From the NCBI GenBank assembly GCA_963821935.1, contig CAWGFM010000005.1:254551-318550 (forward strand): a DNA stretch of 64,000 bases. The letters are read 5' to 3'. The stretch is from an uncultured Actinomycetes bacterium. Its GTDB lineage: Bacteria > Actinomycetota > UBA4738 > HRBIN12. Below are positions 1 through 34,040 of the stretch, piece after piece. The position numbers and the translations under genes were made by a program. The notes beneath the pieces were generated by a model. The model was not told the origin of the DNA, did not search any database, and was given only the letters and a program-made list of their open reading frames with translations. How positions within the stretch are numbered: position 1 is the first letter of the stretch; each line of letters begins with the position of its first letter.

Positions 1-3000
1 CTCCCCTCCGACCGGTCGGAGCTCGTCCTCGTGATCGACCAGTTCGAGGAGGTGTTCACCCTGGTCGAAGGAGAGGACGTCCGGACGCACTTCCTCAACA
101 GCCTCGAAGCCGCCGCCACCGACCCGCACAGCCGCCTCCGTGTCGTCGTCACGCTGCGAGCCGACTTCTACGACCGGCCACTGCTGTACCGAGGCTTCGC
201 CGAACTGTTCCGCTCTCGCGTCGAAGCGGTGATCCCACTCTCGGCCGATGAGCTCGAGCGAGCGATCACGGGACCGGCGAAGCGGGTCGACGTGACGCTG
301 GAACCGAGCCTCGTGGCCGCGATGCTCGGCGACGTCGCCGAGGAACCGGGTGCCCTCCCTTTGATGGAATACGCGCTGACCGAGCTCTTCGAACGGCGGG
401 AGGGCCGCGTCCTCACCCTCGGCGCCTACCGGGAGCTGGGGGGTGTCTCGGGAGCCCTCGGACGCAGGGCAGAGGAGCTGCACGGCGAGCTCGGCGAGGA
501 GGGCAGGGAGGCCGCTCGGCAGTTGTTCCTGCGGCTGGTCGCGCTGGGCGAGGGAACCGGGGACACCCGCCGCCCCGTGCCCAGATCGGAGCTCGCATCG
601 CTGGAGATCGATCGAACAGGCGATGGCGACGGTCATCGACACCTTCGGCGCCTCTCGTCAACTCTCCTTCGACCGGGATCCGCAGACCGGGACGCCCACG
701 GTCGAGCTGGCGCACGAAGCCATGCTCACGGCATGGCCTCGGCTCCACCGATGGATCGACGCGTCGAGGGACGACCTGCGCGCGCAGCATCGGCTGGCCG
801 CGGCGGCGCGGGACTGGAACGAGGCCGACCAGGACCCGTCCTTCCTGCTGTCCGGGTCGCGTCTCGAGCAGGCCGAGGCGTGGCAGGCGGGATCCGATCT
901 CGCCCTGACACCCGAGGAGTCGACCTACCTCGTCGCATCTGTGGCCGAACGCGACCGCAAGAGGACCGACGAGGAGGTCAGACAGGCGCGCGAGCGGGAC
1001 CTGGAGCGCCGGTCGGTCCGGCGGCTTCGGACGGTCGTCGCCGTGTTGACGGTCGCCGCGCTCGTCGCAGGTGTCCTGACGGTGTTCGCCACGAACCAGC
1101 AGGGTCGCGCGGAACAGCAGGAGCGGACCGCGATCGCTCGCGAGCTCGCGGCTGCATCCGTCGCGAACCTCGACGTCGATCCTGAGCGGAGCATCCTGTT
1201 GGCGCTCGAGGCGATCGATCGGACACGTTCCGTCGACGGCTCCGTGCTACCGGAAGCCGAGGAGGCGCTCCATCAGGCCGTCACAACTTCACGGATCGAG
1301 CTCACGTCTCAGGGCGCCGGCGGCAACGTCGACTGGAGTCCGCAGGGGACGTTCGTGACCGAAGGGCCCGAGGACACGGGGACCATCGAGCTACGGAACG
1401 CGGTGACCGGCGATACCGTTCGGACCTGGACGGGCCATGGGATCGACATGAATGACGTCCGTTTCTCAGACGACGGTTCGCTGCTCGCGACCGGCGGGGA
1501 CGACGGAGCACTGAAGGTATGGGACCGGACCACGGGCGAACCGATCTCGAGTGTCCTCGGCCGAGGACCGGCCTTGGGGCAGTCCTTCGACGCAAGCGGC
1601 TCGCTCCTCGCGGGCGTCTGGCCGGACGAGGGCACGCTCCGCGTCGTCGACCCCGTCACCGGGCGGCTGGTCCAGAAGATCGACGGACTGGACACGTTGC
1701 CGCTCGACACCGCGCTCAGCCCAGACGGGCAGCGCGTCGCGGTCGGGATGATCACCGTCGACGAGGCCGCCGTGTTCGACGTCGCGACCGGCGACGAGCT
1801 GTTCCGGTTCCCGCGTCACCACTACTCGGTGCAATCCGTCGCCTGGAGCCCGGACGGCCGGTGGATCGCGACCGCCGCCGGCGACTCAGCAGTGCGGGTG
1901 TGGGACGCCGCGACCGGGCGGCTCGAGGCGCGACTGCTGGGCCACACCGGCGTCGTGATCACGGTCGACTGGTCCGCCGACTCGCGCCGGCTCGTCTCGG
2001 GAGGGAGCGACGGCACGGCTCGGGTCTGGGAGGTGGGCACGACCGCTTCCCGCGAGATCCTGACGCTCGCCGCCCAGCAGACCAGATCGGGGACGTTCGC
2101 CGCGTTCTCGCCCGACGGGAACCACGTGATCACCGGGGACACCGGGATCACGGCGGTGAAGACGTGGGACGTGCAGCCCCTGGGCGGTGCTGAGGTACTC
2201 AACCTCCACACCGACTTCCTCGCGCCGGTCGACGTCGCCTACCTCCCCGACGGCCGGATCGTCGCGCCGATCGCCGGTGGATCCGTCGCGATCTGGAACG
2301 AAGCGAAGGAGGAGCTGCGGCTCGGACCGGGAGGGGGATCACCGGAGGCGGTCACGCGGATCGCCGTCAGCGATGACGGGAGCCGGATCGCGACGGTCCG
2401 CAACTTCAGCGATCAGGTCTCGGTCTGGGACCCGGTCACGGGGGACGCGCTCTTCGACGCGGCGACCGAACCGAGCGGCGAGATCTCGGGGATCGACTGG
2501 AGCCCGGACGGCGAGCACCTGGTCGTAGGGAACTTCGACGGGCACGTGAGTGTCGTCGACGCCGCCGGACGGACGGTCGAGGCCTTCACCGAGAAGGAGC
2601 CGACCAGCATCGAGGGCATCTCGTTCAGCCCCGACGGACGCTGGATCGCCACGGCCGTGGCCAGCCCCGAATCGCCGAACCTGTACCACGTATCGCTCTG
2701 GGACTGGCGGGCGGGCCGGGTCGAACGCACGATCGACGGGATCGGGGCGACCACCGTGGCGTTCGACCCAACGGGATCGAGGCTCGCCGTCGGATTGTTC
2801 GACGGGTTCGTCGAGGTCTTCACCGTGGCGAACCTGGAACGCGTGGATCGGTTCGCGGCGCACTCGGGCGCGGTGGGCGACCTCGTGTTCAGCCCGGACG
2901 GCGAGCGGATCGCCACGGCCGGCGAGGATGCGACCGCCCGCGTGTTCGATGCGGCGACCGGCGAACAGCAGCTCGTCCTGCGCGGTCACGAGTACCTCGT

Positions 3001-3178
3001 CACCGGCGTCGCGTTCAGCCCGGACGGAACGCGGCTCGTGTCGGCCAGTCCCGACGGCCTGGTCCGGGTGTGGACTCTCGACCTCGACGACCTGATCCGG
3101 ATCGCAGACCAGAAGCTGACGCGAGGGCTCTCCGACGACGAATGTCGCCAGTACCTGCACCTCGAGTCGTGCCCATGA
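1..3178 (+). pseudogene. STAND/NACHT-like NTPase - TM helix - WD40-repeat (~14 blades) protein; 5' end cut by window edge; reading frame switches from frame 1 to frame 2 near nt 605-625
   Basis: Frame 1 from nt 1 reads ...SELVLVIDQFEEVFTL (Walker-B-like hhhhDxFEE of STAND NTPases) and the downstream helical domain. After an atcgatcg repeat at ~610 the conserved continuation (IEQAMATVIDTFGASRQLSFDRDPQTGTPTVELAHEAMLTAWPRL) is in frame 2. A TM segment LRTVVAVLTVAALVAGVLTVFA and WD40 repeats (GH...WD patterns, e.g. LLATGGDDGALKVWD, GSDGTARVWE) follow. Confidence 0.6.
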
Positions 3179-3373
3179 GCGACGAGGGCTCCGTACACTG
3201 AAGCGTGGCTCGCAGGAGGCTCCAGATCCGTCCGCCCGGCTTGAAGCCGACCACCAAGGTCGGGACCCTGGGACCGTACCGAGGTCGCTTGGGATTGGCG
3301 TGGGTCATCGCGCCGCTGCTCGCGGGGATCCTCATCGTGGTGGCCGGCTACTTCGCGTTGTTCCGCTGACCTG

Positions 3374-4843: not shown

Positions 4844-4851
4844 CCGCCAGC

Positions 4852-6237: not shown

Positions 6238-6321
6238 GACGCGCGCTCCTCTCAGACCTGCCCAGGAGTCTGGCACCATGGCCGCGACCCCGCATCGTCC
6301 CGACTGGACGATGCGACCGGC

Positions 6322-8584
6322 CTAGCCGGCTTTGCGCAACGGCGCGTAGGCCAGGAGCACTCTCTTGTCGCCGACGTCGGAGAAGGTGATCGTGGCCTCC
6401 GCACCGTCCCCGGAACCGCTCACGGCGAGCACGATGCCTTCGCCCCACTTCTCGTGGATCACGGTATCGCCGGGACCGACGGCTGGCGCTTCGCGCCGTG
6501 GGATGCCACCGGCCGACGGTGGCGTCCAGTCACGAGCCGGCTGCGCGTCGCCGTGGCGCGTGCCGCCGATCACACGGCCACCGCTGTCGTCCTCGCGCCG
6601 GAGCCGTCCGCCGAACGCCGCCTGTCGCGTGGAACCCTCGCCCTGCCGCAGGTCGAACAGATCCTCGGGCATCTCCCCCAGGAACCTGGAGGGCGGGTTG
6701 TACTGCGTCTGTCCGAACAGCGTGCGGCTCCATGCATGCGTGAGGTACAGCCGCTGCTGTGCGCGGGTGATGCCCACGTACGCCAGACGCCGCTCTTCCT
6801 CCAGCTGCGCGGTGTCGGTCATGGATCGGTAGTGCGGGAAGATGCCGTCCTCCAACCCCACGATCATCACCACCGGGAACTCCAGACCCTTGGCGATGTG
6901 CAGGGTCATGAGCGTCACGTTGGATGCGTCTTCGTCGTATTCGTCCTGCTCACCGACCAACGACACCTGCTCGAGGAACTGCTCGAGACCGGCGTCGGGC
7001 TCGCGGGCGATCAGCTCGGCGGCGACGCCCGAGAGCTCCTGCAGGTTCTCGATGCGACCCTGCGCATCGACGGTGCGTTCCTCCTCGAGCTGTCCGAGGT
7101 AGCCGGATTCCAGCGCTGCGAACTCCACCATGCGGGCGGGACCGGCGCCGTCGTCCAGGTGGTGGTACAGAGAGGCCAGGATCTGGTTGAACCCGGCCAC
7201 CGCGCCCTTCGCACGCGCGGCGAGCACGGGGATCTCGTCCACCCGCAGGGCGCGCCTGCACGATCGTGATGTTCTCGTCCCGAGCGAAGGATTCCACCGC
7301 CGATACGGTGGCGTCGCCGATGCCGCGCTTCGGCGTGTTCACGGCGCGCCGGAACGAGATGACGTCGGCGGGGTTCACCAGCAGCCGCAGGTAGGCGAGG
7401 ACGTCCTTGATCTCCCTGCGCTGATAGAAGCGGACGCCTCCGAACACCCGGTAGGGCGTGCCGACGCGCATCAGCACGTCCTCGAGCACGCGGGATTGCG
7501 CGTTGGTCCGATAGAACACCGCGAAGTCGGAGTAGCGGTAGCCCTCGGACTCGCGCAGTCGCTCGATCTCGTCCACGACGAAGAACGCCTCGTCGTGCTC
7601 GTCGTCGGCGCGATACCGAACGGTCAGCTCACCGTCGCCGGCCTCGGTCCACAGCGCCTTCGGCTTGCGCTGCTGGTTGTGCTCGATCAGCGCGTTCGCG
7701 ATGGCCAGGATGTTCGAGCTGGAGCGGTAGTTCTGCTCCATCAAGAAGACCTGTGCGTCGGGGTAGTCGCGCTCGAAGTCCAGGATGTTCTGGATCGTGG
7801 CGCCGCGCCAGCTGTACACACCCTGATCAGCGTCGCCCACCACGCACACGTTGCGATACTTGGCGGCGAGCTGGTTCACCAGCTGGTACTGGGCACGGTT
7901 CGTGTCCTGGTATTCGTCGACCATGAGGTAGCGGAACCGCTCCTGATAGTGAGCCAAGACCTCGGGGTGGTCGCGGAACAGCCGCACGGTCTCGCTGATC
8001 AGGTCGTCGAAGTCCAACGCGCCGGCGTTGCGCTTGCGCGTTTCGTAGGCGTCGAATACCTTCGCGACGGTCTCCTCGTAGTAGTTGGAGGTCAAGGAGG
8101 CGAACTCGTCGGGGCTCAGGACGCGTTCCTTGGCTCGGGAGATGCCGCTGGCCATCGCGCGCGGCGCGAACCGCTTCGGGTCGAGGTTGAGGTCCTTCAA
8201 GATGCCGGCGATGAGGCGCTCGGTATCGCCGTCGTCGTAGATGGTGAAACCGCTGGGCACACCGAGATGCGCGTGTTCCCGACGGAGCAGCCGGGCGCAC
8301 GTGGAGTGGAACGTCAGGATCCACATGCCCTTGGCGACCCGCTCGCCCATCAGGCCCTCGATGCGCTCGACCATCTCGCGGGCGGCCTTGTTGGTGAACG
8401 TGATCGCCAGGATCTGGCCGGGTGAGACGCCTTCTTCTCGGATCAGGAAGGCGATGCGGTGGGTGAGCGCCCGTGTCTTGCCGCTGCCGGCCCCCGCCAC
8501 GATCAGGACCGGGCCCTCCGTATGGAGGACCGCCTCGGTCTGGATGTCGTTGAGCCCCTCGATCAACGGGGAGACGGCGTTCAC
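6322..8584 (-). pseudogene. pcrA: ATP-dependent DNA helicase PcrA/UvrD, frameshift near 7245-7262
   Basis: The N-terminal 2/3 (GAGSGKT Walker A, DEYQDTN, motifs through ENITIVQA) lies in one frame from a GTG at 8584. The C-terminal 1/3 (DEIPVLAARAKGAV...TLMTLHIAKGLEFPVV...VGITRA) is in another frame ending at 6322. The junction is in a gcgcgc repeat. Confidence 0.7.
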
Positions 8585-8663
8585 AGCCTCAGTGTAGGAG
8601 TCCCCGCCGACCCCGGAGGCGGCAGGCACCCGGTTCCAATCGAAGGCGTTCGGCTCGAGTGCG

Positions 8664-9350: not shown

Positions 9351-10114
9351 CCTTCGCGCGCGTTCCCCGGGCCCGGGGGCCGGTCCAGGCCGATGCCGAA
9401 CCGGTCGCGATAGGCGGCCAGGAGCTCGGTGTCGCTGAGCTCGGTCTCGGTTCGCTCGCCATCCCGGGTCTCGATGAGGGTCGACCCCGAGATCGTGACC
9501 CGGCCGCTCAGCGTCGGCAGGGTGCACACCGGTGCGTGTGTGAAATGCGAGTCGGGCGATGTCTGGTGGTAGCGGCATGCAGTCGCGAAATCACCGAGCA
9601 GCCTCGGCTCCAGAGAGAACCGGTACTGGGTCCGTCCGTCTCGTCGGAGGTCACGCCACCCGTCATCGTGCTCCACGATCGTGAACGCACCCGACGGATC
9701 GGTCTGTTCGATCCCCGGCGCCAACATGAGTGGCTCGAGGAAGTTGTCGCCGAACCCGACATCGGCCAGGTACGGCTGATCGAGATCCACCCGCAGGCAG
9801 AGATGGTCGAACGCGATGCCGGGTTCGCCGTGTTCGTCGACGACGCGCGCCTCGAGCAACGTCGTGTCGAACCCGAGCGAGGTCAGGAGCGTCGCGAAGG
9901 CGCCGTTCAGCTCGTAGCAGAACCCGCCCCTGCGTCGCATCGCGACCTTCTCGACGAGCGCGTCCTCCTCGAGCACGATCGGCACACCCAGGTGGATGTC
10001 GAGGTTCTCGAACGGCACGGACCGCAGGTGCGCCACGTGCAAGCGGTGCAACCCGTCCGCGTCCACACCGGGACGCTCGGTGACGCCGATCCGATCCAGG
10101 TAGGCCGCGATCAC
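9347..10114 (-). CDS. arylamine N-acetyltransferase
   Basis: Has the RGGFCYELN catalytic-Cys motif and an N-terminal AYLDRIG...FENLDI block. A GTG start overlaps the guaA stop (GTGA). Confidence 0.7.
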
Positions 10115-11643
10115 TCCCACTCGATCGTGCCGGGCGGCTTGCTGGTGATGTCGTACGCGACCCGATTCACGCCGGGCACCTCTCGGACGATGCGCGACGC
10201 GATCGTGTCGAGCAGATCCGGTGGAAGGCGCGCCCAATCGGCCGTCATGGCGTCTTCGGACGTCACCGCGCGCACGATCACCGGGTTCTCGTAGGTGCGG
10301 CCATCGCCCATGACGCCCACGCTCTGCACGTCGGCCAGCAGTACGCAGAACGCTTGCCAGGTCTGGCGCTCCTGGCCGGCGCGCTTGATCTCCTGACGCA
10401 CGATGTGATCGGCGCCCCGCACCTTCGCCAGGTTGGCGGCGTTCACCTCGCCGACGATCCTGACGGCCAGCCCCGGGCCGGGGAACGGCTGGCGCTGGAC
10501 GATCTCCTCCGGCAGGCCCAGCTCGCTGCCCACCCGCCGGACCTCATCCTTGAACAGGTCTCGGAGCGGCTCCACGAGTGAGAAGTCCATGTCCTCGGGC
10601 AGCCCGCCCACGTTGTGGTGGCTCTTGATGTTGGCGGCGGTCGCTGACCCCGACTCGATCACATCGGGGTAGAGCGTCCCCTGCACCAGGAACCTCGCCC
10701 CGGCGTGCTCGCGCGCGACCTCCTCGAACACCCGGATGAACTCCGTGCCGATCGCCTTGCGCTTGGCCTCGGGGTCGGTGACGCCCGCGAGCACGCCCAG
10801 GAAGCGGTCGGTCGCCTTCACGTGCACCAGCGGCACGCGGAAGTGCCGCGCGAAGGTTTCTTCCACCTGGCCGGGCTCGCCCTCGCGGTTCAAGCCGTGA
10901 TCGACGAACACGCAGGTGAGCTGGTCGCCCACGGCACGGTGGACGAGGAGTGCCGCGACGCTGGAGTCGACACCACCGCTCAGCGCACAGAGCACCTGTG
11001 CCTGACCCACCTGCGCACGGATCCTGGCGACCTGGTCGTCGATGATGTTGGTGGGCGTCCAGTCCGGCAGCAACCCACACCCTTCGTAGAGGAAACGCTT
11101 CATCACGTCCTGGCCGCGTCGGGTGTGCGAAACCTCGGGATGGAACTGCACCGCGTAGAGCCCGCGCTCGGGATCTTCCATGGCCGCGATCGGGATCTGA
11201 TCGGTGCGCGCCGTGACGCGGAACCCTTTGGGCTCCAGGGTGACGGCGTCGCCGTGCGACATCCAGACCGTGTCGCTGGCCGGGAAATCCTGGAGCAACC
11301 GGGAGCCGGGCTCGACCGTCAGCGAGGTCGCGCCGTACTCACGCTGCCCGGTCGAGGCGACCTGTCCGCCCAGATCCTGCGCCATGAGCTGGTGGCCGTA
11401 GCAGATGCCCAGCACCGGCACCCCGAGGTCGTAGACGCCGGGATCCACCTGCGGTCCGTGCTCGGCATACACCGACGCCGGGCCACCGCTGAGGATGATG
11501 CCGGCCGGTCGATGCGCTGCAACCTCGGCGGCAGAGAGATCGTGGGGCACGATCTCGGAGTAGACGTGTGCCTCCCGAACACGTCGCGCGATCAGCTGGG
11601 CGTATTGCGCCCCAAGATCGACGACCAGGACCGGATGCGTCAG
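10111..11643 (-). CDS. guaA: GMP synthase (glutamine-hydrolysing); no canonical in-frame start, only CTG overlapping the guaB3 stop
   Basis: Full GATase ([28 protein letters not shown]...GIILSGGP...CYGHQ) plus ATP-PPase (SGGVDSSV) and a C-terminal dimerisation domain. The conserved N-terminal 40 codons precede the first in-frame GTG. Confidence 0.9.
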
Positions 11644-12916: not shown

Positions 12917-14408
12917 TCAGACCAACCGATCCGCGATCCGCTCGCCGATCACCACGGTCGGCAGGTTGGTGGTGGCCCGCACGGTGGCCGGCATCAGGGA
13001 GGCATCGGCCACCACGAGTCCCTCCACCCCTCGGACCCGGCCATCGGGGTCGGTCACGGCGTTCGGGTCACCGGCCGGGCCCATGGCGCACGTGCCGACC
13101 GGGTGCCAGTAGTGGATCACACCCGCGCGCACCTCATGCGCCAGATCGCGGGAGCCGACGGTGGGGCCGGGCTCGATCTCGCGGCCCACGAGCGATCGCA
13201 TCGCCGGGCTCGATGCGAACCCGCGAGCGAGCGTGACCCCTTCGGTCAGCGCTGCCAGGTCGTGCCCATCCTGATCGGAGAGGTAGGCGTGATCGATCCG
13301 GGGCGGGTCGTCGACGTCCGGACCTCGCAGGGTGAGCGCACCGCGTGACCGCGGCGTGAGGTAGGCGGCGAAGATGGCGGTCCGCCCATCCATAGCCGTC
13401 TCGGGGAACACGTGCAGATCGAACACGCCATCGGGGGCGCCGGTCGTGGCTGCTTTCGCGAACCCTTGCTCGTCCGGTACGGGCATGCCGGTGGCCGCGA
13501 ACGCCTGGGTCCTGGCCACCAGCTCGTCCGTCGGCTCGAAGGAAAGCTCGAACGACGGGTGATCGTGCAGGTTTCGCCCCACGCCGGCCACGTCAGCGAC
13601 GATCGGGACCCCCAGATCCCACAATTCCTGGGCCGGACCGATCCCGCTCCGCAACAGCAGCTCGGGCGACCCATAGGTGCCCCCGGCGACCACGACCAGG
13701 TCGGCCCACGCCTCGGCCGCACCCCCGGGCAGCCCGGATCGCCATGACGCCGACGGCGCGGCCGTCTTCGATCACGATCCGGTGCACCAGGACACCGCCG
13801 GCGATCTGGATGCCCGGATGCCCCCGAACCGGGTCCAGATAGGCGAAGGCCGCGTTCCATCGCACGCCTTGGGGGCTGTTCGACGGTTCCACGCAGACCG
13901 CCGGCGTGCCATCGAGCGACTCGAGGTCGTCGATCGACGGCAATCCCAGCTCGGTGCCCGCTTCGACGAAGGCCCGATGCAACGGCGCCACCTCCTCGTC
14001 GCGGAACCGCCGCACCCGCATGCGTTGTGACGCCTCCTGGAACCACGGAGCGAGATCGTCCGCCGCCCATCCCACGAGACCCCGCTCCGCCCACCCGTCG
14101 TAGTCGGCTCGATGACCCCACGACGCGGTGCAGCCATTGTGCGAAGAGCACCCACCGATGACGCGGGCTCGCTCGTACGGCAGGTCCCGTCCCTCAAGCT
14201 CCGCATCCGACCGGTACCCCCAATCGTGGCTCGTGGGGATCGTGGAGGCGTCCAACAGATCGCTGGGCCAGCAGAGACCGCCGAACGATCCGTAGTCGGG
14301 CCCAGCTTCCAGCACCAGCACGCTGCGGCCAGACTCGACCAGACGGGCGGCCACGACCGAGCCCGCCGTACCACCACCCACCACGATCGCATCCACACCG
14401 TCGGTCAT
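12917..14408 (-). pseudogene. GMC-family FAD oxidoreductase (ChoD/choline dehydrogenase-like), frameshift ~13690-13720
   Basis: The N-terminus DAIVVGGGTAGSVVAARL (FAD fold) plus a GMC N-domain are in one frame. The C-terminal GMC domain (VAGGTYGSPELLLRSGIGP...GRNLHDHP...HPVGTCAMG) is in another frame. Confidence 0.65.
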
Positions 14409-18460: not shown

Positions 18461-18597
18461 GCCGCTGTCAAGCCGACCGACAGGGCGTACGTGAGGAGGA
18501 TCAGCACGAGAACGGATCCGAAGCTGTGCAGCGAAACGAAGGCGAGCAGGAGCCGTCGCAAGGGTCTCGGTCGATCACCTGGACCGTGCGACGTCGC

Positions 18598-19074
18598 TCA
18601 TCGTGGCGAACGACGCCTACGGAGGGTGTCGTCGGTCACTGCCACCGACAGCACATATGCAGCGTGGGTGCCCACGGCGGTCGCCAGCACGGCCGGCGGC
18701 CACTTCCACGGCGGAGGCGTCTTGCCCAGCAACGGGAACAGCGTGAACGTGGCAGTCATGAGCGTGGCTCCGAACACCAACGCTGCCCAGGGTTCGGGCA
18801 TCATGAAGCGCAGCGTGCCGTGCCAGACGCCGAACGCCGAGCCATACCCCCAACGCAGTGCCAAACCCAGTTCCTCGTCCTCCCGATCGGTGACGTTCGG
18901 CAGGTGCAGGATACCCGCAACGATCTCTCCGGGCACCAGGCTGTCGTCGTAGTCGAGCTGGCTGGTCGCGTGCCGAACCCTGCGCTCCGTGCCGTAGGCG
19001 ACACTCATGGCGGCGGTTCCGGCGAGTCCGGCGATCACACTTCGGGCGGGCCACGGGAGGTTCATGACCTTCAT
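18598..19074 (-). CDS. hypothetical membrane-associated protein
   Basis: 158-aa ORF with plausible composition and a hydrophobic C-terminal half. Confidence 0.4.
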   Translation of the reverse strand: MKVMNLPWPARSVIAGLAGTAAMSVAYGTERRVRHATSQLDYDDSLVPGEIVAGILHLPNVTDREDEELGLALRWGYGSAFGVWHGTLRFMMPEPWAALVFGATLMTATFTLFPLLGKTPPPWKWPPAVLATAVGTHAAYVLSVAVTDDTLRRRRSPR

Positions 19075-19156: not shown

Positions 19157-19925
19157 CTACAGGCCTGGACTGCTCTGCATCAATCCTCCATCCGCGAACA
19201 CCGTGGTCGCCGTCACATAGCTGGAGCCGTCGCCCGCCAGGAAGGCCACGACGCTCCCGATCTCGTTCGGTTCGGCCATCCGCCCCAACGGGATGGCGAC
19301 GTCCAGGGTCTTCATCTTCGCCGGGATCATCCTCGGTCGACTTGTTGATGGGCGTGTCGACCGCTCCAGGCCCGACCCCGACCACCGTGATCTGGTGCGG
19401 TGCCAACTCCACTCCCGCCGTACGGGTCAACATCCGCATCCCGCCCTTCGACAGGCAGTACGCGGTGTTGTCCGGCATCGGCCAATCCTCGTGCACCGAC
19501 GTGATGTTGATGATGCGCCCTCCGTCGCCCTGCGCGATCATCTGCTTCGCCGCCACTTGCGTCCCGAAGAACGCGCTCTTGAGGTTCACGTTCAGGACGA
19601 ACTCGTACTGCTTCTCCGTCGTATCGAGGACCGACGTGCGTGTCTCCACGCCGGCGTTGTTCACCATGATGTCGAGGCGGCCGAACGTCTTGACCGCAGC
19701 ATCCACCAAGGCCTGCAGATCCTCGAGCTTGCTGACGTCCGCATCGACCCCGATCGCCTGATCGCCGAGCGCGGCGACCTGCTTCTCCAACTCCTCGGTC
19801 GCCTCGGGGTGCGCGACGTAGTCGATCACGATGTTGGCGCCTTGCTCCGCCAACGAGAGCACGATCCCCTTCCCGATGCCGCTGTTGCCTCCGGTGACGA
19901 TCGCTACCTTCCCCTGCAGGCTCAT
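19157..19925 (-). pseudogene. SDR-family oxidoreductase (glucose 1-dehydrogenase-like), frameshift ~19310
   Basis: MSLQGKVAIVTGGNSGIGKG...NNAG...the Y/K catalytic region reads in one frame up to INKSTEDDP. The conserved C-terminus (AKMKTLDVAIPLGRMAEPNEIGSVVAFLAGDGSSYVTATTVFADGGLMQSSPGL*) is in the +1 frame. There is an extra G in cccggcg. Confidence 0.65.
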
Positions 19926-19967
19926 CATCGCTCCCTTCCGCCGACGCTTGGCTCCCTTCCGCCGAGC

Positions 19968-20640
19968 GATAGGCGAGATGGACAGCACCATCGCCATCGA
20001 CGGTCACGCGGTTCTCCGGGAGCGGAAGATCCTCGGTCGTCAGCCAGAAGTCCACGGCATGCTCGGCGACGTCGGCGAGGCTCCATCGAGGCGCGAGCAT
20101 GGTCAGCTTCGGCTCCTCGCCCTTCATCGCGGCTGCGTTGGACTTGCCAACCATCTGGATCTGGCCGATCGGGTGATCGAAGTCTGCTGTCCCGAAGTAG
20201 AAGTCATTGACCGCCAACGTCTTCTGGAAGGTCGTGTCGGTGGGCTCCTTCGAGAGGGCCACCACGGCCTTGCTGTTGTGGAACATGTAGTTCCTGCCCA
20301 CTTGGTCTGAGCCATTGGCCAAGCCGGAAGGATGCGCTTCGTTCGCCGAGTTCAGCAGCAGCTTCGCGCTGTTCGCCGCCCCGGCGGAGACGACGACGAG
20401 GTCGGCTTCGTAGGTCTCTTCGCTCCTTTGCGCGAGACGATGACGCCGGTGACCACACGACCCGCACTATCTGTTTCGAGCTTCTCACCTCGGCGCCAAC
20501 GAGCAGGGTCACGTTCTCGTGATCGAGTGCCGGGCGGACAGCCATGACTTCCGCGTCGGATTTCGCATGCACCAGACAGGGATAGCCATCACACCACGTG
20601 CAAGCGGATGCACGTGCTCGCGTTCAGGCATCCGTGCCCC
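19968..20640 (-). pseudogene. FAD-dependent (GMC-like) oxidoreductase remnant, truncated at both ends with >=2 frameshifts
   Basis: Pieces ALDHENVTLLVGAEV / ETDSAGRVVTGVIVSRKG / TYEADLVVVSAGAANSAKLLLNS...VGRNYMFHN occupy three different frames. No N-terminal FAD-binding part fits before the neighbouring gene. Confidence 0.45.
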
Positions 20641-21950
20641 CGTCCTCGTCGTCGCCATCCCAGTCGATCCGCCCTGCGCCCGTGCGGTCGAGCACCTGTG
20701 ATCCGCGCGTCTTCGAGAAGTAGTCCCAGGCCCAACTGACGAAGGCGTCGGCGCGGTGTTTCATCCCGCTCAGCAGCACGACATGCACGCCGAGCCATGC
20801 GGAGAATGCGATCGGTCCGTGGAGCTCATGGCGATGCTCACCGACTTCCGCCACGGCAGCGTTCCGACCGATCATCGCCATGATCCCCTTGTCGTGATAG
20901 TCGAAGTCGTGGCGGTCTTTCCCTGCGATATCTGCCTTGATGTTCGAGGCCGCCCATTCCCCCGATTGCTGGGCCACCGATCCCAGCTGAGGCAGGGGGT
21001 TGCCGTCGGCACCCTCGATGTTCGCGACGTCACCCACCGCGTACACCCCCGGGTGATCCACGACCGTGAGGTCGGGCTGCACGTCGATGCGCCCCCCGCG
21101 ACCGGTTGGCAGACCCGTCGTTCCCACGATCGACGCGGCATGCAGACCGCCACCCCAGATCACGCAGCGTGTGTCGATCTTCTCCCCGTCCGATAGCAGG
21201 ACATGGCCCGGATGGATCTCCTTCACGCCCGTGCCTAGGCGCAACTCGACGCCATCATGCTCGAGCGCCTTGGCAGCGTAATCGTGCGCCTTCGCGGAGA
21301 AGGCGCCGAGCACGGCGTCCCCGAGGTCGACCAAGATGACGCTGGCCGCCGAGACGTCCAGGTCGGGGTACTCAGTCGGGCAACACATCGCGGATCATCT
21401 CCGCGAGTGCGCCTGAGATCTCCGTGCCCGTTGCCCCAGCCCCGACGACCACGAAGTTCAAGGCGCCGCGATCCAGCAGCGATGGATCGCGATCGGCATC
21501 CTCGAATGCTTCCAGGACTCGTGAGCGAAGCCTCTCCGCATCGTCGAGCGAGTACAGCGGGAACGCGTGCTCTGCACCCGGCGTGCCGAAGAAGTTCGGG
21601 CGGCTTCCACCGGCCAGCACGAGGAAGTCGCCCGACAACGTCTGTCCATCATCGAGCGTCACGGCGCGGGCAGCGGGGTCGGCAGCCACGACCTCCGCCA
21701 TCTTCACATCAACGTTCGGGTGCTTCCTGAAGACCGCACGGATATCCATCGCCACATCCGAGGATGCGAGTTGCGAGGTCGCCACTTGATAGAGCAACGG
21801 CATGAACTGCTGGTAGTTGTGTCTGTCGATCACCGTGACCCGCACGTCATCGTGCTTGGCGAGTTCCCTCGCGCATCCGACGCCTGCGAACCCGGCTCCG
21901 ATGACGATCGCGTGCCGTCGTTCGTGCGGCTTCGTCTCGTTCCCCGTCAT
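20624..21950 (-). pseudogene. ndh: type II NADH:quinone oxidoreductase (NDH-2), +1 frameshift at 21385 (CCC run)
   Basis: N-terminal FAD site AIVIGAGFAGVG and C-terminal NAD site/quinone region (VYAVGDVA). AEMIRDVLP|TEYPDLDVSAASVILV is restored by deleting one C. Confidence 0.7.
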
Positions 21951-22889
21951 GGATGACTCCTCCCTTGTCGACCTCGCACGCTGATGCCCCATCGTGCGCG
22001 CCACGGATCTCCGGGGATCAGGCGTTCAACGTCGGACCCGGTCGCGAAAGCGTTGGGTGGGCAGGTCATCGGCTCGACCGCGATGCCCCCTCGTCGACGT
22101 GATTCCGGCTCCACGGTGTCGCCCGTGTACACCATGAGGTACCGGAATCGATCGTCCGCCCAGATCGTCGCGCCTCGATCGCCGTCTTGGGTGCCGATGT
22201 GCGCCCGAACGTAACCGTCGTCGTCTCGGTTCAGTCCCGTGTAGCAGGTATCCAGCCGCATCGAACCGATCCGACGTGCGCTGGTGTAGTCGAACGATGT
22301 TCCCGCGACCGATTCAGCACCGGTCGGCAACCCGCGGTCGTCGGTCACGACACGCCGCTCGGCCGGGATCGATACGACGGCGTGATCGATCGGTCTCCCG
22401 ATCGTCAGGTAAGGGTGGAAACCGATCCCGAACGGGGCGGGCGTCGCCGATGCGTTCTCCACTTGGATCGACACCTCGATCCCCTGGTCCGTGAGCCGGT
22501 ACTCGAGTCCGAGGTCTAGGAACCAGGGGTAGCCGGGTTGCGGAGCGAGCGTGTAGCCGAGCTCGATCGACATCGTCCGATCGCGCCACCACCCTCCAGG
22601 GATGCCACCGCACCAGCCCGTGGATAGCGTTCTGACGTTCCGGTTCGTCGAGGGCGGCTCGCCCCTGCATCCCCTCGAACGTGTACCGCCCCTGGTCCAG
22701 GCGGTTCGGCCACGGCGCCAGCACCTGGCCCCGCCCAGCAGGCGAGACCTCGTCCGCGCTGAAACCGTCGAGGACGTCCACATCGTCCACCGAGAAGTTC
22801 CGCAAGGTGGCTCCCACCTCGGTCACGATCGCGCGGTGAGACCCACGCGCGATCTCGTGCTGCGCGCCGGAGGGCGGTCGGTCGCCCAC
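21947..22889 (-). pseudogene. aldose 1-epimerase (galactose mutarotase-like), frameshift ~22560-22580
   Basis: The N-terminal half (VLAPWPNRLDQGRYTFEGMQGRAALDEPERQNAIHGLVRWHPW) and the C-terminal half (GFHPYL...YLMVYTGDT...GIAVEPMTCPPNAF) are in different frames. A GTG start lies 5 nt after the GH15 stop, and the stop overlaps the ndh start (ATGA). Confidence 0.65.
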
Positions 22890-22894
22890 GATGC

Positions 22895-24686
22895 TCAGCC
22901 AGTCGTTCCTGCGGCCTCCGCGTTCGCCGCCGATAACGCAACGGCGGCTGCGATCAAGGTCAGGTGCGTGAAGGCCTGAGGGAAGTTCCCGATCAGTCGT
23001 TCGTTCTTGGCGTCGTACTCCTCGGAGAAGAGACCCAGGTCGTTCCGCAACGACAAGAGCCGCTCGAACAGCTCCGTCGCCTCCTCGACCCGGCCCAGCA
23101 TCGCGAGGTCGATCACCAGCCAGAAGCTGCACGCCAAGAAGGCACCTTCGCCGGGAGGGAGTCCGTCGGCCGCATCCGCGTCGGGGATGTACCGCATCAC
23201 GAACCCGTCCTTGACGAGCTCCCGCTGGACGGCCTCCACGGTCCCCACCACCCGTGGATCCGAGGGGGGAAGGAACCCCACCTGAGGGATCAGCAGCAGC
23301 GCAGCGTCGAGTTGATCCGACCCGTAGTACTGCGTGAAGGTGTTCCGCTCGGCGTCGTAGCCCTCACGACACACTTCCTCGTGGATGTCATCTCGCATCT
23401 GCTTCAGAGCAGCGATCGATGATCGGAGTCCGGACTCCTCCGCCATCTTCACGATCGCGATCAGCGGCGACCCAGGCCATCACCTTCGAGTGCACGAAGT
23501 TGCGCCGAGGTCCTCGGACCTCCCACACACCGTCATCGGGGTCGTGCCAGTGCTCTTCGAGCCATCGCACGATCCCCCGGGCCGCTTCGATCGCGTCCAG
23601 CGACGGCTCCATCCCCAGCTGGCGCGCCCCGTAGATCGCGTCGGCGAGTTCCCCGTACACGTCAAGCTGCAGCTGCCCCGATGCCGCGTTGCCGACGCGG
23701 ACCGGCGTCGAGTTCTCGTATCCCGACAACCAATCGAGTTCGTACTCCTCGAGCCTCCGCTCGCCGGCAACGCCGTACATGATCTGCAGGTCCTCGGGAT
23801 CGCCTGCGACCGCTCGGACGACCCAGTCGCGCCATCTGGTGGCCTCGTCGACGTACCCCGCTGCCATCAATGCGTCGAGCGTCAACGCGGCGTCCCGGAT
23901 CCAGCAGAAGCGGTAGTCCCAGTTGCGGACGCCACCAAGGAACTCCGGGAGCGATGTGGTCGCGGCGGCCACGACACCCCCGGTCGGCTCATAGGTGAGC
24001 GCCTTCAACGTGATGAGCGAACGCTCGACCTCGTCGGCCCATCCACCTCGGTAGGTCGATCGCTGCGACCAGTCGCGCCACCAGGCATCCGTTTCGTCGA
24101 GAGCCTCGGACGCGTCGGTCGGGGGCGGGGGATCCTCCCACGAGGAGTACGACGTGAGGACGAAGCCGACCCGGTCGCCGACACCGACGGTGAATCCCGC
24201 GTCGTAGCCCGAGTCGTTGAGCACCATGGGCACGTCAGCGCGAAGTCGCAATGCCTCCGGACCGGCACCGGCCGCGATGTCGCTGCCCTCGCCGCGCACC
24301 CAGGGACGGGTCTTCCCGTAGTCCATCCGAGGAGCGAACCGGCTCTGCATGTCAACGGTCCCTCGCAGACCCTCGACGATGCGGACGATCCGCGGAAGCG
24401 TCTGCCTGGCCGGCATGAAGTCGATGAGGCGCGCCGCGCCGATCGCCGTTTCGAAGGTGGTCTCCAACACGAGGGATCCGTCGCGATATCGCCTGGACGA
24501 GGCGCCTCCGCCCTCGGCGGGTCCGATGATCCAGGACCCGTTCTCCTCCGTTCCGAGGAGTGAAGCGAAGCACGCTGCGGAATCGAACCGAGGCACACAG
24601 AGCCAATCGATCGATCCATCGATCCCGACCAATGCCGCTGTCTGTGTGTCACCGATCAGTGCGTAGTCCTCGATGCGAAGCGCCAT
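22895..24686 (-). pseudogene. glycoside hydrolase family 15 (glucoamylase/trehalase-like), 2-nt deletion ~23455
   Basis: The N-terminal 410 aa run MALRIEDYALIGD...HSKVMAWVA. The continuation KMAEESGLRSS...GNFPQAFTHLTLI is in another frame. The junction is at a gcgc repeat. Confidence 0.7.
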
Positions 24687-25231: not shown

Positions 25232-25771
25232 TTGCTCCGACGGATGTTGACAGCGATGTTTCATCCCATCCGGTCGATGCTCCGCAACCGCCCGTCAGCC
25301 AGCCTTTGGAGGTTGTCTGGCTCCGGAAGGGATCTCGTGTCCGCGACGACGAACGCGCTCTTCGCGGTCGATCCCGTCCCATGGGCCAGGGCGCAGATGG
25401 CGTTCTCGCTCGCGTTCCACATCATCCTCATGCCCCTGGGCGTAGCTCTTCCGCTCGTGATCGCGGGGGCGATCTCGGGAGCCGCCTCGTTGCTCCGACT
25501 CGTCCGCGGAGCCCAGCGTGGGGCCCGGCTGCTCTCGATCGGAGCTGTGGCAACCTTGGTGTTGGCGTGGGGCGTGGCGCAATGGGATTTCATGCTCCCG
25601 ACGAGCCTGACGGTGGCCCAGGCCGCAGCGCCCGACGGAACGATCAAGGCGGTGCTCTTCGCCGTCGTCCTTGCTGCCCTGCTGGTGGTACCGGGGTTCG
25701 CGCTCCTCTACATCTTGGACCAGAAGGGTGTGCTTCCGGAGGAGGGCGCGAAGGACCTGCACGACTCCTGA
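25232..25771 (+). pseudogene. possible cytochrome bd oxidase remnant: cydA N-terminal helix joined in frame to cydB C-terminal helices
   Basis: DPVPWARAQMAFSLAFHIILMPLGVALPL matches the CydA helix-1 signature (R.QFA.T..FH.LF.PLT.GL). The tail SLTVAQAAAPDGTIKAVLFAVVLAALLVVPGFALLYIL resembles the last helices of CydB. The total is only 179 aa. Confidence 0.35.
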
Positions 25772-25820
25772 GCCAGTCGGGGATGGCCACGGCTTGGACC
25801 TCGCCCGCGTGTTCGGTTCG

Positions 25821-27110: not shown

Positions 27111-27193
27111 GTAGCCCCGATCTCGGACGATGTCCGAGGGAGACTGCGCCGGGGTTCCCTGCGCGGGTTGTTCTCGTGTCGCCGTCGTGCTGG

Positions 27194-27989: not shown

Positions 27990-28044
27990 GATCGATCACT
28001 CTCCTCGTGTCGTTGCGAGATGGTGCGTGCGACCCTCTGCGGAC

Positions 28045-28542: not shown

Positions 28543-28711
28543 GTGATCCCTCCCTCTCGTGCGTGATTGAAGCCGCCCAGATCGGACTGCCAACCGTATC
28601 TTGCAACACTTTCACCGCTGGCGTCTCGGACCACATCATCCCGACAGGGTGAATCTCCCCCTCGCCCACGACCTTCGCCGTTCATCTGGGTCCGATAGGG
28701 TTCCGGGCATC

Positions 28712-30885
28712 ATGGCGAGAACGCAGTCGGTCAGCGTCCAGGGGAACGGACGCCCGCGGAGCCGGCCATCCGACCTTCACGATGACCTCTTCGCACCTCC
28801 CGTTCCCCGGGCAGATGCCATCCCACGCCCGACCCTCGTCGGGACGCTCACCGCCACGTCTTGTCCGCTGGTGGTGGTCTCGGCACCGGCGGGCTATGGC
28901 AAGACCACGTTGCTGGCGCAGATGGCGCGAGCTCGACACCCGTCCGATGGCATGGATGCGATGCACGGACCACGGCAGCGATGCGCGGTCGGTCCTGATT
29001 CACGTCCATGACGCACTCGCACGATGCCCCGACTTCGGGCGACAGCAGCCGGTGTTGCTGATCGTGGACGACGCCCACTTGATCGAGGGGAAACGAACCC
29101 TCGATGCCTCCTCGGCGTGCCCGACGATCTACCTCCGGGATCCACGATGATGATCGCGACCCGTCACGAGCTCGGGAGGCCCCGCGGCCCGGATGCGTTC
29201 CCAGGGCCGCATCCACGAGGTCGGAACCGCCTCGTTGGCGATGGATGTCGGTGAGACCGCCCGCTTGGTCCGTGCCTTCGGCCTCGATGCATCCGAGGAG
29301 GAGGTGGCGGCGCTGACCGATCGGACCGAGGGTTGGCCCGCGGCCTTGTCGCTCGCGATGGTCTCCGCCGTCGACGACGACCGTACCGCCGGGACTCGAG
29401 GCCTTCGGAGGAGCCAGCCGTTTCATGGCCGACTACCTACGCACAGAGTTCTTCGAGCGCAACGCCGATCAGATCCCGTTCCTCACACGAACCTCGATCG
29501 TGCGCACGATGAACGGGCCGCTGTGCGACGCGGTGCTGGGCACCACCGGGTCGGGGGAGATCCTCGCGGGCCTCGCACGCACCAACGGTCTGGTCCTGCC
29601 CACGGCCGATCCTGGATCGTTCCGCTACCACGAGCTGTACCGGGGATTCCTCCTCGCCGAACTCGACGTGCGCGAACCAGAGCTTGTCGCGCCGTTGCAC
29701 GCCAAGGCCGCACGGTGGTTCAGGGAGCAGGGCGAGCACGAGGAGGCCGTGGGGCACGCGTTCGCCGCGCACGAGCCCGACCTGGCTGCCGACAGCATCG
29801 GTCGGTGTGGCCTCGCCGTGTTCTGGCGCGGAGGGATGGCGACGGTTCGAGGGTGGCTCACGCAGCTCGATGAGGACACGTTGCTGCGCTGGCCCTCCTT
29901 GGCGATCGAGGGAGCATTGGTCCACTCGCTGATGGGCTTGCCGGCCGAAGCGGACCGCTGGTTCGACCTGGCGGAACGAGGGATCCCCAACGATCCTCCC
30001 CCGGATGGGAGCGCATCGGTCGAGGCATCTCTGGCCCGCCTTCGATCCATGACGTGCCGAGACGGAATCGAGCAGATGCAGCGAGACGCCTCGATCGCGT
30101 GCGAAGCCGAAGCCGACTGGAGCGTCTGGAGAGCCTCCTCACTGCTCGGCGTGGGGGTCGCACACGCACTGAGCGGCGATCTCATCGCCGCCGAACGCGT
30201 GTGGCACGAAGCCGTCGATATCGGTCGTGAGGTAGGCGCGATCCCAGGGCTGACGCTCACGCTCTCCGAGCTGGCCCGTGCGGCCGTGAGCAGAGGCGCC
30301 TGGGCGACAGCGGCCGAGCTCTCCGATTCGGCGGCGTCGTTGATCCTCGGTTCCGGCTTGTCCGACTACGCCACGAGCGCCTTGACCTACGCGATGCAAG
30401 CGCGCGTCGCGCTGCATCAGGGACTGCCCCAGCAGGCGACCGAGCACCTGGAACGCACGGTCGGACTCCTGCCGTTGCTCACGTACGCGCTGCCCTGGTA
30501 CGCCGTGCAGGTTCGGCTCGAGCTCGGCTGGGCGTTGTTGGGGCTGGCACGCCCGGAGGAAGCCGAGTCACGGCTCGCCGAGATCGACGGCGTCGTGTGG
30601 AAACGGCCCGGACTGGGCTCGCTGCTCCCCGAGATCGACCACCTCCGTCAGGCGATCGTCGCCGGGGCCGCCGACGCGGTGGCGGCATCCGGTTTGACAC
30701 CCGCGGAGCTTCGCCTCATGCCCCTGCTCCCAACGCATCTTTCGTTCGAAGAGATCGGCTCGCACCTGTTCGTTTCCAGGAGCACGGTGAAGACTCAGGC
30801 GATCTCGATCTACCGAAAGCTCGGAGTCTCCTCGCGCGGTGAGGCGGTGGAGCAGGCACGCTCCATGCACCTGCTCGACCCATGA
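28712..30885 (+). pseudogene. LuxR/MalT-type (LAL) transcriptional regulator with at least four frameshifts in the NTPase domain
   Basis: Walker A VVVSAPAGYGKTTLLAQ is in frame 2 and Walker B LLIVDDAHLIE in frame 0. PPGSTMMIATRHEL is in frame 2 and TEGWPAALSLA in frame 0. MADYLRTEFFE...the TPR-like region and the C-terminal LuxR HTH (LSFEEIGSHLFVSRSTVKTQAISIYRKLGV) are in frame 1. Confidence 0.7.
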
Positions 30886-30998
30886 CCCTCCCAGATTTTG
30901 GCCTTTCATCCCCCGGGGATGATGCCTCTCTCACACGGACGCGCTCTGATGGAGCGAGTCGATAGGCCGAGCGATCACAGGGCAGATGGGCGGGCACG

Positions 30999-31382
30999 AT
31001 GGCTGGGCACGAAGACGCTCTCCGGAAGCTGACGGTCAACGACGAATCCGCGATGGAGAACGAGCTCGGCCTGCGGATGGCTCTATCCCCAGAGCATCCG
31101 CTGGATCTCAAGACCGGTGCGCTCGTTCGGTTGAGTGCCCTGGTGGCGATCGGAGCGGCGCCTCCCTCGTTCCAATGGGCTGGGGCGGCCGCGGTGAGGT
31201 CTGGTGCCACGCCTGACGAAGTGGTTTCAATGCTCTGCGCGATCGCGCCGATCGTCGGGCTGGCGCGAGTCGTCGCTGCGGCTCCCGAGATCGCGCTGGC
31301 CATCGGCTACGACACGGACGTCGCGCTCGAAACCCTCGTGGGCGATGCTCAGCCCCCCGGATCCTGGGCGCCCGTTCGATAG
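30999..31382 (+). CDS. carboxymuconolactone decarboxylase (AhpD-like) family protein
   Basis: 127-aa ORF with CMD-fold helical pattern including LVRLSALVAIGAAPPSFQWAGAAAVRSGATPDEVVSML. Confidence 0.6.
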   Translation: MAGHEDALRKLTVNDESAMENELGLRMALSPEHPLDLKTGALVRLSALVAIGAAPPSFQWAGAAAVRSGATPDEVVSMLCAIAPIVGLARVVAAAPEIALAIGYDTDVALETLVGDAQPPGSWAPVR

Positions 31383-34038: not shown

Positions 34039-34040
34039 GC

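Follow-up and report, generated by a model that had tools for sequence, protein, structure and literature searches.

The frameshifts that split genes in the left half of the window, by which we mean the whole 64,000-nt stretch analyzed here, most probably (we put the probability at roughly 0.85) represent a consensus artefact of long-read metagenome assembly, in which merged strains rather than gene decay would have broken the reading frames. This interpretation, which draws on assembled contigs instead of read pile-ups, is favoured because the window alone carries the indels, the same genes are intact in sister assemblies, both alleles of a SNP stand in tandem at four sites, the consensus switches between haplotypes and the split genes show purifying selection; it is additionally favoured because sister contigs carry the same kind of lesion in indispensable genes. 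Three older lesions, namely the remnant of cydA-cydB, a GMC stub of 220 aa and the loss of about 4.4 kb, which took the first codons of guaA, are to be regarded as genuine, since they are common to independent assemblies.

Split genes and their counterparts in sister assemblies

Pfam scans and base-level alignment to sister contigs detected about 39 small private indels in nt 1-31,400, splitting about 11 genes. Split genes were called by Pfam on stop-to-stop ORFs, the GC3 frame plot alone being too noisy for calling shifts. The sisters are five or six independent assemblies of the same species that are 96-100% identical (samples ERZ250394xx-95xx); the sister contigs with intact genes come from four other samples. 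The affected features are as follows:

1..3178, plus strand, nSTAND1 NTPase-WD40 gene with its 5' end beyond the window; private +1 (G) at 614
6322..8629, minus strand, pcrA/uvrD-type helicase gene; +1 at 7252/7253, GC in the window, G or C in the sisters
8655..8656, unstranded, private +1 directly upstream of the sortase start; TC in the window, T or C in the sisters
12917..14408, minus strand, GMC (ChoD-like) oxidoreductase gene; +1 at 13739/40, TC in the window, T or C in the sisters
17835..18601, minus strand, K+-channel (Ion_trans_2) gene; private +1 at 18304, 18357 and 18593, in the N-terminal third
19157..19925, minus strand, SDR gene; private +1 (C) at 19321
20624..21950, minus strand, ndh (type II NADH dehydrogenase); private +1 (A) at 21374
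21947..22889, minus strand, aldose 1-epimerase gene; private +1 (A) at 22570
22895..24686, minus strand, GH15 glucoamylase/trehalase-like gene; +1 at 23455/6, TC in the window, C or T in the sisters
28712..30885, plus strand, LAL/MalT-type LuxR regulator gene; private +1 at 28928, -1 at 29109, +1 at 29174 and +1 at 29389

Pfam assigned domains of one protein to different frames: nSTAND1 occupies frame 1 as far as about position 606 and WD40 in frame 2 at 380-3178; in pcrA, UvrD-helicase and UvrD_C 3-151 share one frame, and UvrD_C 230-347 and tudor lie in another; GMC_oxred_N and GMC_oxred_C of the ChoD-like gene are in separate frames, as are the two Pyr_redox_2 halves of ndh. The preliminary description of this DNA had placed splits in left-half genes at positions that Pfam and the sister alignment confirmed almost exactly, and the break that it had listed as possible at the N terminus of the K+ channel corresponds to the three insertions given above. 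Moreover, the 3' end of the K+-channel gene holds an indel cluster at 17851-17898, and further private indels (19070, 19090, 19104 and 19137) lie in or beside a 155-aa gene, which carries a +1 at its end (19070), and the adjoining spacer.

The comparison with close relatives proposed in that description found the same genes intact in five or six sister assemblies. The base at 614 is absent in L006 and L007, and the STAND-WD40 gene is a single ORF of more than 1388 aa in L007. PcrA is unbroken at 768 aa and the SDR at 255 aa in the sisters, Ndh has 441 aa in all of them, and full-length products were found for the ChoD-like oxidoreductase (496 aa unbroken in L006 and L007), the K+ channel (255 aa in L003, L005, L006 and L007), aldose 1-epimerase (313 aa in L003, L004 and L005), GH15 (596 aa in L003 and L005) and the LAL regulator (723 aa unbroken in L002/L003 and L004). 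The sortase ORF at 8664-9350 is unbroken in the window (228 aa) and is the same in L006 and L007. Altogether, at least 17 frame-breaking sites (614, 7252, 13739, 18304, 18357, 18593, 19070, 19321, 20420, 20485, 21374, 22570, 23455, 28928, 29109, 29174 and 29389) were recorded, all private to the window; at each of them the two to five covering sister contigs, among them those of the divergent strains c103281 and c15341, were unanimous against the window, and no frameshift indicative of inherited inactivation was common to the window and any sister assembly. Among the GTDB species representatives, the exact 37-mer across the 23455 insertion had no match, and a GuaA-based scan returned other species only, at 80% identity or less.

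The sister contigs have private splits of their own, which differ from contig to contig and are thus assembly-specific. L006 splits the STAND-WD40 gene by a shift pair at 1370 and 1581, L007 an N-acetyltransferase gene, L004/L008 the genes for GH15, CLC, ELFV dehydrogenase, GMC and DUF2252, and L001 those for ELFV dehydrogenase, LAL and CLC. Additionally, rplC/rplD are split in L092 and L094, and secY, tuf, rplB, rplX, rplE and glmM in contig_222810 (L097). Splits in such essential genes (secY, tuf and r-protein genes) cannot be real.

The right half of the window presents the opposite picture:

31500..64000, unstranded, conserved housekeeping block without window-private indel

This block includes the genes for APS kinase, groES/groEL, tsaBDE, alr, glmS/glmM, rpsI/rplM, truA, rplQ, rpoA, rpsK/M, infA, map, adk, secY and the r-protein operon. 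It had been described as flawless, and alignment to the sister contigs indeed detected no window-private indel in nt 31,500-64,000: the comparison of 39,209-64,000 with contig_8050 contained zero gaps, and between 31.5 and 46.8 kb none was private to the window, the indel at 38705 belonging to L002 alone. The rightmost window-private indel, at 31433, is intergenic. Uniform sequencing error is ruled out by about 39 private indels on the left against 0 on the right, as the preliminary description had correctly argued. The left half, which it had characterized as accessory, is not purely so, as guaA, a guaB-like gene, pcrA and ndh are present there; pcrA and ndh are among the genes carrying private frameshifts. 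The 1.49-Mb source contig is clean in the other 33 kb examined, so that the error patch is unusually sharp-edged.

Tandem alleles, haplotype alternation and their proposed origin

Single-base insertions prevail among the private indels (19 of +1 as compared to about seven isolated single-base deletions), and in 13 of these 19 the inserted base is not a copy of a neighbour. It had been stated that every indel sits in a short repeat or homopolymer, which does not hold for these 13, and the private indels do not follow a natural spectrum of run slippage with deletions at least as frequent as insertions. At 7252, 8655, 13739 and 23455 the window carries both sister SNP alleles in tandem (GC, TC, TC and TC, respectively). 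In pcrA, for instance, c62298 reads GGGCGGCC, c8050 and c103281 read GGGCCGCC, and the window reads GGGCGCGCC. Tandem alleles at at least four of 19 insertions have a chance probability of about 3.5e-4. This link covers 4 of the 19 insertions only; elsewhere the sampled sisters do not include the second allele.

Alternation between haplotypes was observed in the same region. Across the 1.2 kb from 7104 to 8317, which hold 17 informative sites, the window changes at least nine times from c62298-like to c8050-like alleles or back. Around pcrA the switches occur every 10-200 nt, with some intervals of 6-9 nt, and the pcrA shift lies in the middle of this stretch. As expected of a blended consensus, the scale of switching is shorter than plausible recombination tracts; further features pointing in the same direction are that the lesions are assembly-specific, that they coincide with polymorphic sites at which the alleles are combined, and that essential genes are hit too in sister contigs.

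Strain-variable sites amount to 2-10% in the left half vs. 0.15-2.5% in the right half among the sampled sisters. The left half really is a hypervariable region at the population level and as such the substrate for the artefact; the LAL gene, for example, lies inside a strain-divergent block, with 94 of the 113 mismatches between window and L002 falling between 28 and 31 kb. An artefact simply proportional to pan-strain SNP density is ruled out, however, since the right half, in which about 330 sites vary between strains of the sampled sisters, has 0 indels, where about nine would be expected under proportionality. Since the right half is variable yet indel-free, the strains that co-occur in the source sample must be what matters.

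Following this, we propose that in the source, an uncultured soil actinobacterium with several strains of the species co-occurring in related samples, a single consensus was built from reads of at least two haplotypes, which would yield a blend switching over tens of bases. The assembler or polisher would emit both alleles consecutively at some SNP positions, giving a +1 and a broken frame, and in the most divergent stretches small indels would accumulate in clusters; between identical strains there would be nothing to blend, and the housekeeping half would appear flawless. The data are probably of Nanopore origin, processed with Flye and Medaka, and the step emitting both alleles is likewise a probable one. 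The contig names fit the Flye pattern, and in GTDB the closest genomes are long-read MAGs from MFD. The MFD project is Nanopore-only, used Flye --meta with one Medaka round and names microdiversity as a problem (PMC12313526).

The window resembles collapsed-haplotype errors of Flye --meta plus Medaka in that errors occur in one assembly where strains differ, the consensus is a mosaic, ORFs are broken by indels and conserved regions are clean; the family of data matches as well. Contrarily, the tandem-allele +1 with a palindrome bias (see below) could be linked to no documented failure mode. Known strain-variable genomic islands, the flexible genome of environmental populations, are similar to the left half in their share of variable sites, block-wise divergence and differences in gene content, but they account for the substrate of the artefact and not for the frameshifts. 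The significance of these results is mainly practical, as there is no reductive evolution in the window: a strain-variable region of a Nanopore-style MAG can mimic a "pseudogene island" beside a flawless core. Two read-free diagnostics are applicable to any MAG, namely an insertion that places both alleles of a population SNP in tandem and haplotype alternation over tens of bases. Unchecked, pseudogene counts and inferences of decay from such MAGs will include false positives, concentrated in the accessory genome that is studied ecologically.

Selection and alternative explanations

Relaxed selection, with dN/dS approaching 1, was not found in the split genes, the signature being purifying. 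Their pN/pS ranged from 0.08 to 0.37 and was 0.23 when pooled, slightly higher than the 0.15 of intact neighbours, and the differences fell mainly at third codon positions. Low values were obtained for ndh (0.08), pcrA (0.10), the SDR gene (0.11) and the GMC stub (0.11), and the highest for the ChoD-like GMC (0.37) and LAL (0.34). GH15 differed from L003 by a single +1, with 0 substitutions over its 1,791 nt.

It is unlikely, to begin with the mildest departures from a blended consensus, that some of the private frameshifts are real and very recent or that the palindrome bias arises in vivo; the same judgement applies separately to an expression of guaA by CTG reinitiation, discussed below. 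A real minority may lie, e.g., in low-polymorphism blocks (614, 21374 and 22570) and would then mark a strain that has just begun to lose a hypervariable island, and the palindrome-completing bias may be a true in vivo process, i.e., quasi-palindrome template switching or motif-directed damage, rather than a product of software.

Genuine strain-specific decay of the whole region, in which a recent relaxation of selection on a 31-kb accessory island would have left about 11 real frameshifts, comparable to the reductive evolution of M. leprae or M. ulcerans, is quite unlikely. It would be in line with the sharp contrast to the intact neighbouring block, with the old real remnants of the region (cyd fusion, GMC stub and guaA 5' deletion), with the slightly raised pN/pS of GMC and LAL and with the proportion of indels to substitutions among the private differences (about 39:287, or about 0.13), which in itself is within the range of neutral decay. 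By contrast, the absence of any frameshift common to the window and even one of the five or six sister assemblies leaves no phylogenetic nesting, and pcrA and ndh were hit despite a pN/pS of 0.08-0.10, as was GH15 with no substitution at all. When 1-bp insertions arise spontaneously, they mostly duplicate a base within a run, and the 13 non-templated single-base insertions thus belong to a class rare among spontaneous mutations. We know of no mutational process that yields two SNP alleles in tandem, as seen at four insertions, and the alternation of haplotypes over tens of bases and the look-alike lesions in secY, tuf and r-protein genes of sister contigs of the same data type likewise speak against decay. 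Pseudogenes in M. leprae and M. ulcerans also stand beside intact housekeeping genes and include a few truly truncated remnants; however, they are common to clonal relatives, with relaxed selection and natural indel spectra, whereas the frameshifts of the window are private, with pN/pS of about 0.1-0.3 and insertions that are non-templated or tandem SNP alleles. The preliminary description leaned towards genuine decay, which the private indels, intact sisters, purifying selection, tandem alleles and haplotype flips leave unsupported; the alternative it offered, a locally low-quality or chimeric assembly stretch, is supported by these observations.

Plain low-coverage long-read error, in which a low depth of the left half would have led to random basecalling or consensus indels unrelated to strain mixing, is very improbable. 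Random errors would not match known SNP sites with both alleles (P = 3.5e-4), nor would they yield haplotype alternation. Moreover, Nanopore random errors are mostly deletions linked to homopolymers, whereas +1 insertions outside homopolymers dominate here. In favour of such error, the 102-kb sister contig L097 has about 1% indels throughout, which is typical of a low-depth contig, and errors in low-coverage MAGs are noted in the MFD paper (PMC12313526). A drop in depth over 31 kb within a 1.49-Mb contig needs strain-specific coverage, so that this explanation overlaps with the merging of strains.

Five of the 13 non-duplicating insertions create perfect palindromes of at least 8 bp (TCGATCGA twice, GGCGCGCC, GCGACGTCGC and GATCGCGATC), as compared to an expectation of 4.8% (P = 2.3e-4 for a pattern that was spotted post hoc). 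This might suggest real palindrome-completing mutagenesis, with +1 insertions produced in the living cell through template switching at quasi-palindromes or at methylated motifs of the restriction type, as the source of the frameshifts at large, which is hardly credible: tandem SNP alleles already account for two of the five (7252 and 23455), every event is private to one assembly, and a mutator would act across the whole genome, yet no such insertion occurs in the right half, spacers included. Programmed ribosomal frameshifting or recoding, named as a possibility in the preliminary description, is ruled out by the uninterrupted ORFs of the relatives at every site.

Lesions shared by the sister assemblies

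The three lesions regarded as genuine are located as follows:

10111..11643, minus strand, guaA without canonical start; deletion junction, identical in L006 and L007
19885..20545, minus strand, GMC_oxred_N-only stub of 220 aa; truncation common to the sisters, the window adding private -1 at 20420 and 20485
25397..25771, plus strand, cydA-N/cydB-C fusion remnant of 124 aa; deletion product identical in all sister strains

Pfam recognized Cyt_bd_oxida_I 1-29 and Cyt_bd_oxida_II 199-300 on the one ORF of the cyd remnant, and exactly this protein is encoded on four other contigs; the 220-aa ORF of the GMC stub was found in L003, L005, L006 and L007. These two remnants had been taken to favour decay. 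That they are genuine stands, but being present in every sister in identical or near-identical form they are uninformative on the private frameshifts.

In the case of guaA, the codon listing contains no ATG, GTG or TTG before a conserved 13-residue stretch, and the sole start candidate is a CTG at 11643-11641, which overlaps the stop codon (TGA) of the IMPDH-like gene upstream. GuaA homologues have 512 aa and begin with MADPR. The corresponding region of L008 (c103281) possesses a canonical start and 4.36 kb of extra DNA with genes for TusA, DsrE and a cyclase/AAA16/TPR protein of 1173 aa; this TusA/DsrE/cyclase segment (4.4 kb) is confined to c103281. On the evidence of these codons, termination-reinitiation at the non-canonical CTG may be the sole means by which guaA, an essential gene, is expressed.

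Gene content and sister contigs

The window has a G+C content of about 67%. Stop-to-stop ORFs whose GC3 was of the coding type were scanned against Pfam, which gave the gene order of the left half; the right half is listed after it:

Left half (nt 1-31,400), start: STAND NTPase-WD40 protein, DMFA2_C protein, DUF2252
next: pcrA, sortase, N-acetyltransferase
next: guaA, IMPDH-like gene, GMC oxidoreductase
next: aquaporin, two membrane proteins
next: K+ channel, 155-aa protein, SDR
next: GMC-N stub, ndh, aldose epimerase, GH15
next: cyd remnant, CLC channel, DUF6325, SHOCT and DUF1269 proteins
last: LAL-type regulator
Right half (nt 31,500-64,000): groES/EL, tsa genes, alr, glmS/glmM, rpoA, secY, ribosomal protein operon

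The split genes reported for the left half in the preliminary description were borne out, as the Pfam domains of six proteins (STAND-WD40, PcrA, GMC, Ndh, epimerase and GH15) each fall in two reading frames. The window's GroEL has a residue-for-residue match on two metagenome contigs in ENA, each about 600 kb long and carrying a Flye-style name, and further look-ups yielded seven contigs of the same species from six ENA assemblies:

ERZ25039591:contig_62298, spanning the left half
ERZ25039565:contig_15341 and contig_87193, spanning the left half
ERZ25039576:contig_103281, spanning the left half
ERZ25039550:contig_8050, spanning the left half
ERZ25039494:contig_9155, not among the five spanning the left half
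ERZ25039469:contig_222810, not among the five spanning the left half

The closest GTDB species representatives are "MFD…bin" MAGs of the Microflora Danica long-read project, in which Nanopore reads were assembled with Flye --meta --nano-hq followed by one Medaka round and microdiversity was named as limiting factor (PMC12313526). We infer that the sister samples belong to the same project.

Frameshifts private to the window

The window was aligned to all sister loci and every indel was tabulated. Indel states seen in the window only occur at 614, 7252, 8655, 13739, 18304, 18357, 18593, 19070, 19321, 20420, 20485, 21374, 22570, 23455, 28928, 29109, 29174 and 29389; at each of these sites all covering sisters (2-5 contigs per site), including the divergent contig_103281 and contig_15341, stand against the window. 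The genuine decay favored by the preliminary description is not supported by these data, since the split genes are full length in sister assemblies (PcrA 768 aa, GMC 496, Ndh 441, epimerase 313, GH15 596, SDR 255, K-channel 255, LAL 723 and STAND-WD40 >1388 aa) and the frameshifts are private to the window. The right half is indeed flawless: the alignment to sister loci detected no window-private indel from 31.5 to 64 kb, the rightmost one being intergenic at 31433, and no gaps relative to contig_8050 over 39,209-64,000. The argument that uniform error cannot explain this asymmetry was judged sound.

We consider the frameshifts, at a probability of about 85%, to be an assembly artefact of the strain-mixture kind, while genuine strain-specific decay is very unlikely and the small remainder falls to variants of these readings. 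Using the intact ORFs of the sisters as frame, pN/pS between window and sister was 0.08 (ndh), 0.10 (pcrA), 0.11 (SDR), 0.16 (epimerase), 0.23 (K-channel), 0.34 (LAL) and 0.37 (GMC); pooled, broken genes gave 0.23 and their intact neighbours 0.15. The differences in broken genes lie mostly at third codon positions, and GH15 differs from sister locus L003 by one inserted base with 0 substitutions over 1,791 nt. From these substitution patterns the broken genes look to be under selection, and the frameshifts, if real, would all have to be extremely recent.

Lesions of this type are also present in the other assemblies, each having a different set. In L006, STAND-WD40 is broken in the interval 1370-1581, over which the frame of the window stays open, the N-acetyltransferase is split in L007, GH15, CLC, ELFV dehydrogenase, GMC and DUF2252 are split in L004 and L008 (both from contig_103281), and ELFV dehydrogenase, LAL and CLC in L001. 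Moreover, rplC/rplD are broken in L092 (2233-3526) and L094 (2150-3493), and secY (233 + 190 aa), tuf, rplB, rplX, rplE and glmM are fragmented in L097 (ERZ25039469:contig_222810), which shows 111 gap openings in 11.9 kb aligned to the window. Lesions in secY, tuf and genes for ribosomal proteins cannot have a biological origin, and therefore this assembly family demonstrably yields local patches of frameshift errors. It is clear that the public ENA/NCBI records of the sister contigs contain assembly errors; among L092, L094, L096 and L097, the genes frameshifted are secY, tuf, rplB, rplC, rplD, rplE, rplX, rpsQ and glmM, and a fused rplM-rpsI call was also noted (L096 sites 6862-7178 and 17626-18843).

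Insertion signature and probable strain mixture

Spontaneous single-base insertions are mostly duplications inside runs. Among the window-private +1 insertions, 13 of 19 do not duplicate an adjacent base, and at four sites the window carries the alleles of different sisters in tandem:

7252: sisters G or C, window GC
8655: sisters T or C, window TC
13739: sisters T or C, window TC
23455: sisters C or T, window TC

Simulation gave a chance rate of 1.8% per insertion, so that P for at least four of 19 is 3.5e-4; such a signature is the one expected of a blended consensus. The other non-duplicating insertions would fit the blended model if the second allele were that of an unsampled strain, as at 22570 (window AC, all sisters C). 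At sites informative for contig_62298 and contig_8050, the window keeps to a single one of the two for long stretches outside 7104-8317; within this patch it alternates between their alleles at least nine times across 17 sites, with the pcrA shift mid-patch. Recombination tracts of plausible length would be far coarser than this alternation, which matches consensus haplotype switching. Kilobase blocks were also observed within 7104-11667, the window having the contig_62298 haplotype at 8894-10046 and that of contig_8050 at 10336-11667, which could have arisen either by genuine recombination between co-occurring strains or from the assembler switching haplotypes on a large scale.

Additionally, in five of the 13 non-duplicating cases the inserted base turns the site into a perfect palindrome of 8-10 bp (TCGATCGA at 614 and 22570, GGCGCGCC at 7252, GCGACGTCGC at 18593 and GATCGCGATC at 23455), against an expectation of 4.8% per site (P = 2.3e-4 in a post hoc test, two of the five being already accounted for as tandem alleles). 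This bias may be due to strand symmetry of the basecaller or polisher, or to methylated motifs.

Variable sites among sister strains amount to 2-10% per 2 kb in the left half and 0.15-2.5% in the right half, and the 287 window-private substitutions lie in the same blocks as the private indels (10-22.5 kb and 28.9-31 kb). Agreement with variability is imperfect, as the right half has about 330 variable sites across all sampled strains yet no artefact; hence the deciding variable would be the particular strains combined in the source sample. The asymmetry is most probably due to the assembly of a strain mixture and not to selection on a decaying island, and is not regarded as a real biological feature. 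The case serves as a caution and offers two simple diagnostics that work without read data.

Shared lesions, the guaA junction and the ribosomal region

Three lesions are real because they are common to independent assemblies; they predate the strains and have no relation to the private frameshifts. The remnants put forward as signs of decay thus stand as part of the region's loss history, but being older and unrelated they lend no support to the private frameshifts being decay. Two of the ORFs concerned are:

25397-25771, cyd remnant ORF, 124 aa: about 29 N-terminal CydA residues fused to the last ~100 of CydB
19885-20545, stub with GMC_oxred_N only, 220 aa

Four further contigs, drawn from different samples, carry the cyd fusion ORF with 100% identity despite its hypervariable surroundings, and it may encode a conserved small membrane protein rather than being dead remains. 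The GMC stub is also found in L003, L005, L006 and L007, with a pN/pS of 0.11; of its 22 differences, 18 fall at third codon positions, so that purifying selection seems to act on the truncated protein, which may still be used. In its place, contig_103281 (L004) has a 109-aa GMC_oxred_C piece nearby.

Relative to contig_103281, which retains the segment at L008:5655-10018, a 4.36-kb deletion removed TusA, DsrE and a 1173-aa cyclase/AAA16/TPR gene together with the first six guaA codons, and the junction (…CAC TGA CGC ATC CGG TCC TG…) is the same in the window, L006 and L007, hence in three assemblies or more. Codon listing of 11631-11643 (minus strand) revealed no ATG, GTG or TTG ahead of the conserved GuaA N-terminus. 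The sole start candidate is a CTG that shares bases with the TGA ending the upstream IMPDH-like gene (CTGA) and has GGGGA about 7 nt upstream; in four sister assemblies the gene calls for guaA come out truncated, at 479 or 453 aa. Judged by its sequence context, expression of the essential guaA may rely on reinitiation from this non-canonical codon.

In the ribosomal region, a protein of about 270 aa upstream of rpsI (52567-53433, minus strand) has several small between-strain indels at 52665-52909, its products being 269-272 aa across strains, with Ribosomal_L13 and a weak HC2 match in the L097 call; it looks like L13 with a low-complexity extension showing natural length polymorphism. Furthermore, the usual gene order is rpsM-rpsK-rpsD-rpoA; the gene calls of the sisters instead place rpoA directly after rpsK, across a 119-nt spacer and with no rpsD between them (window 55527-56100, L089:4517-5957).
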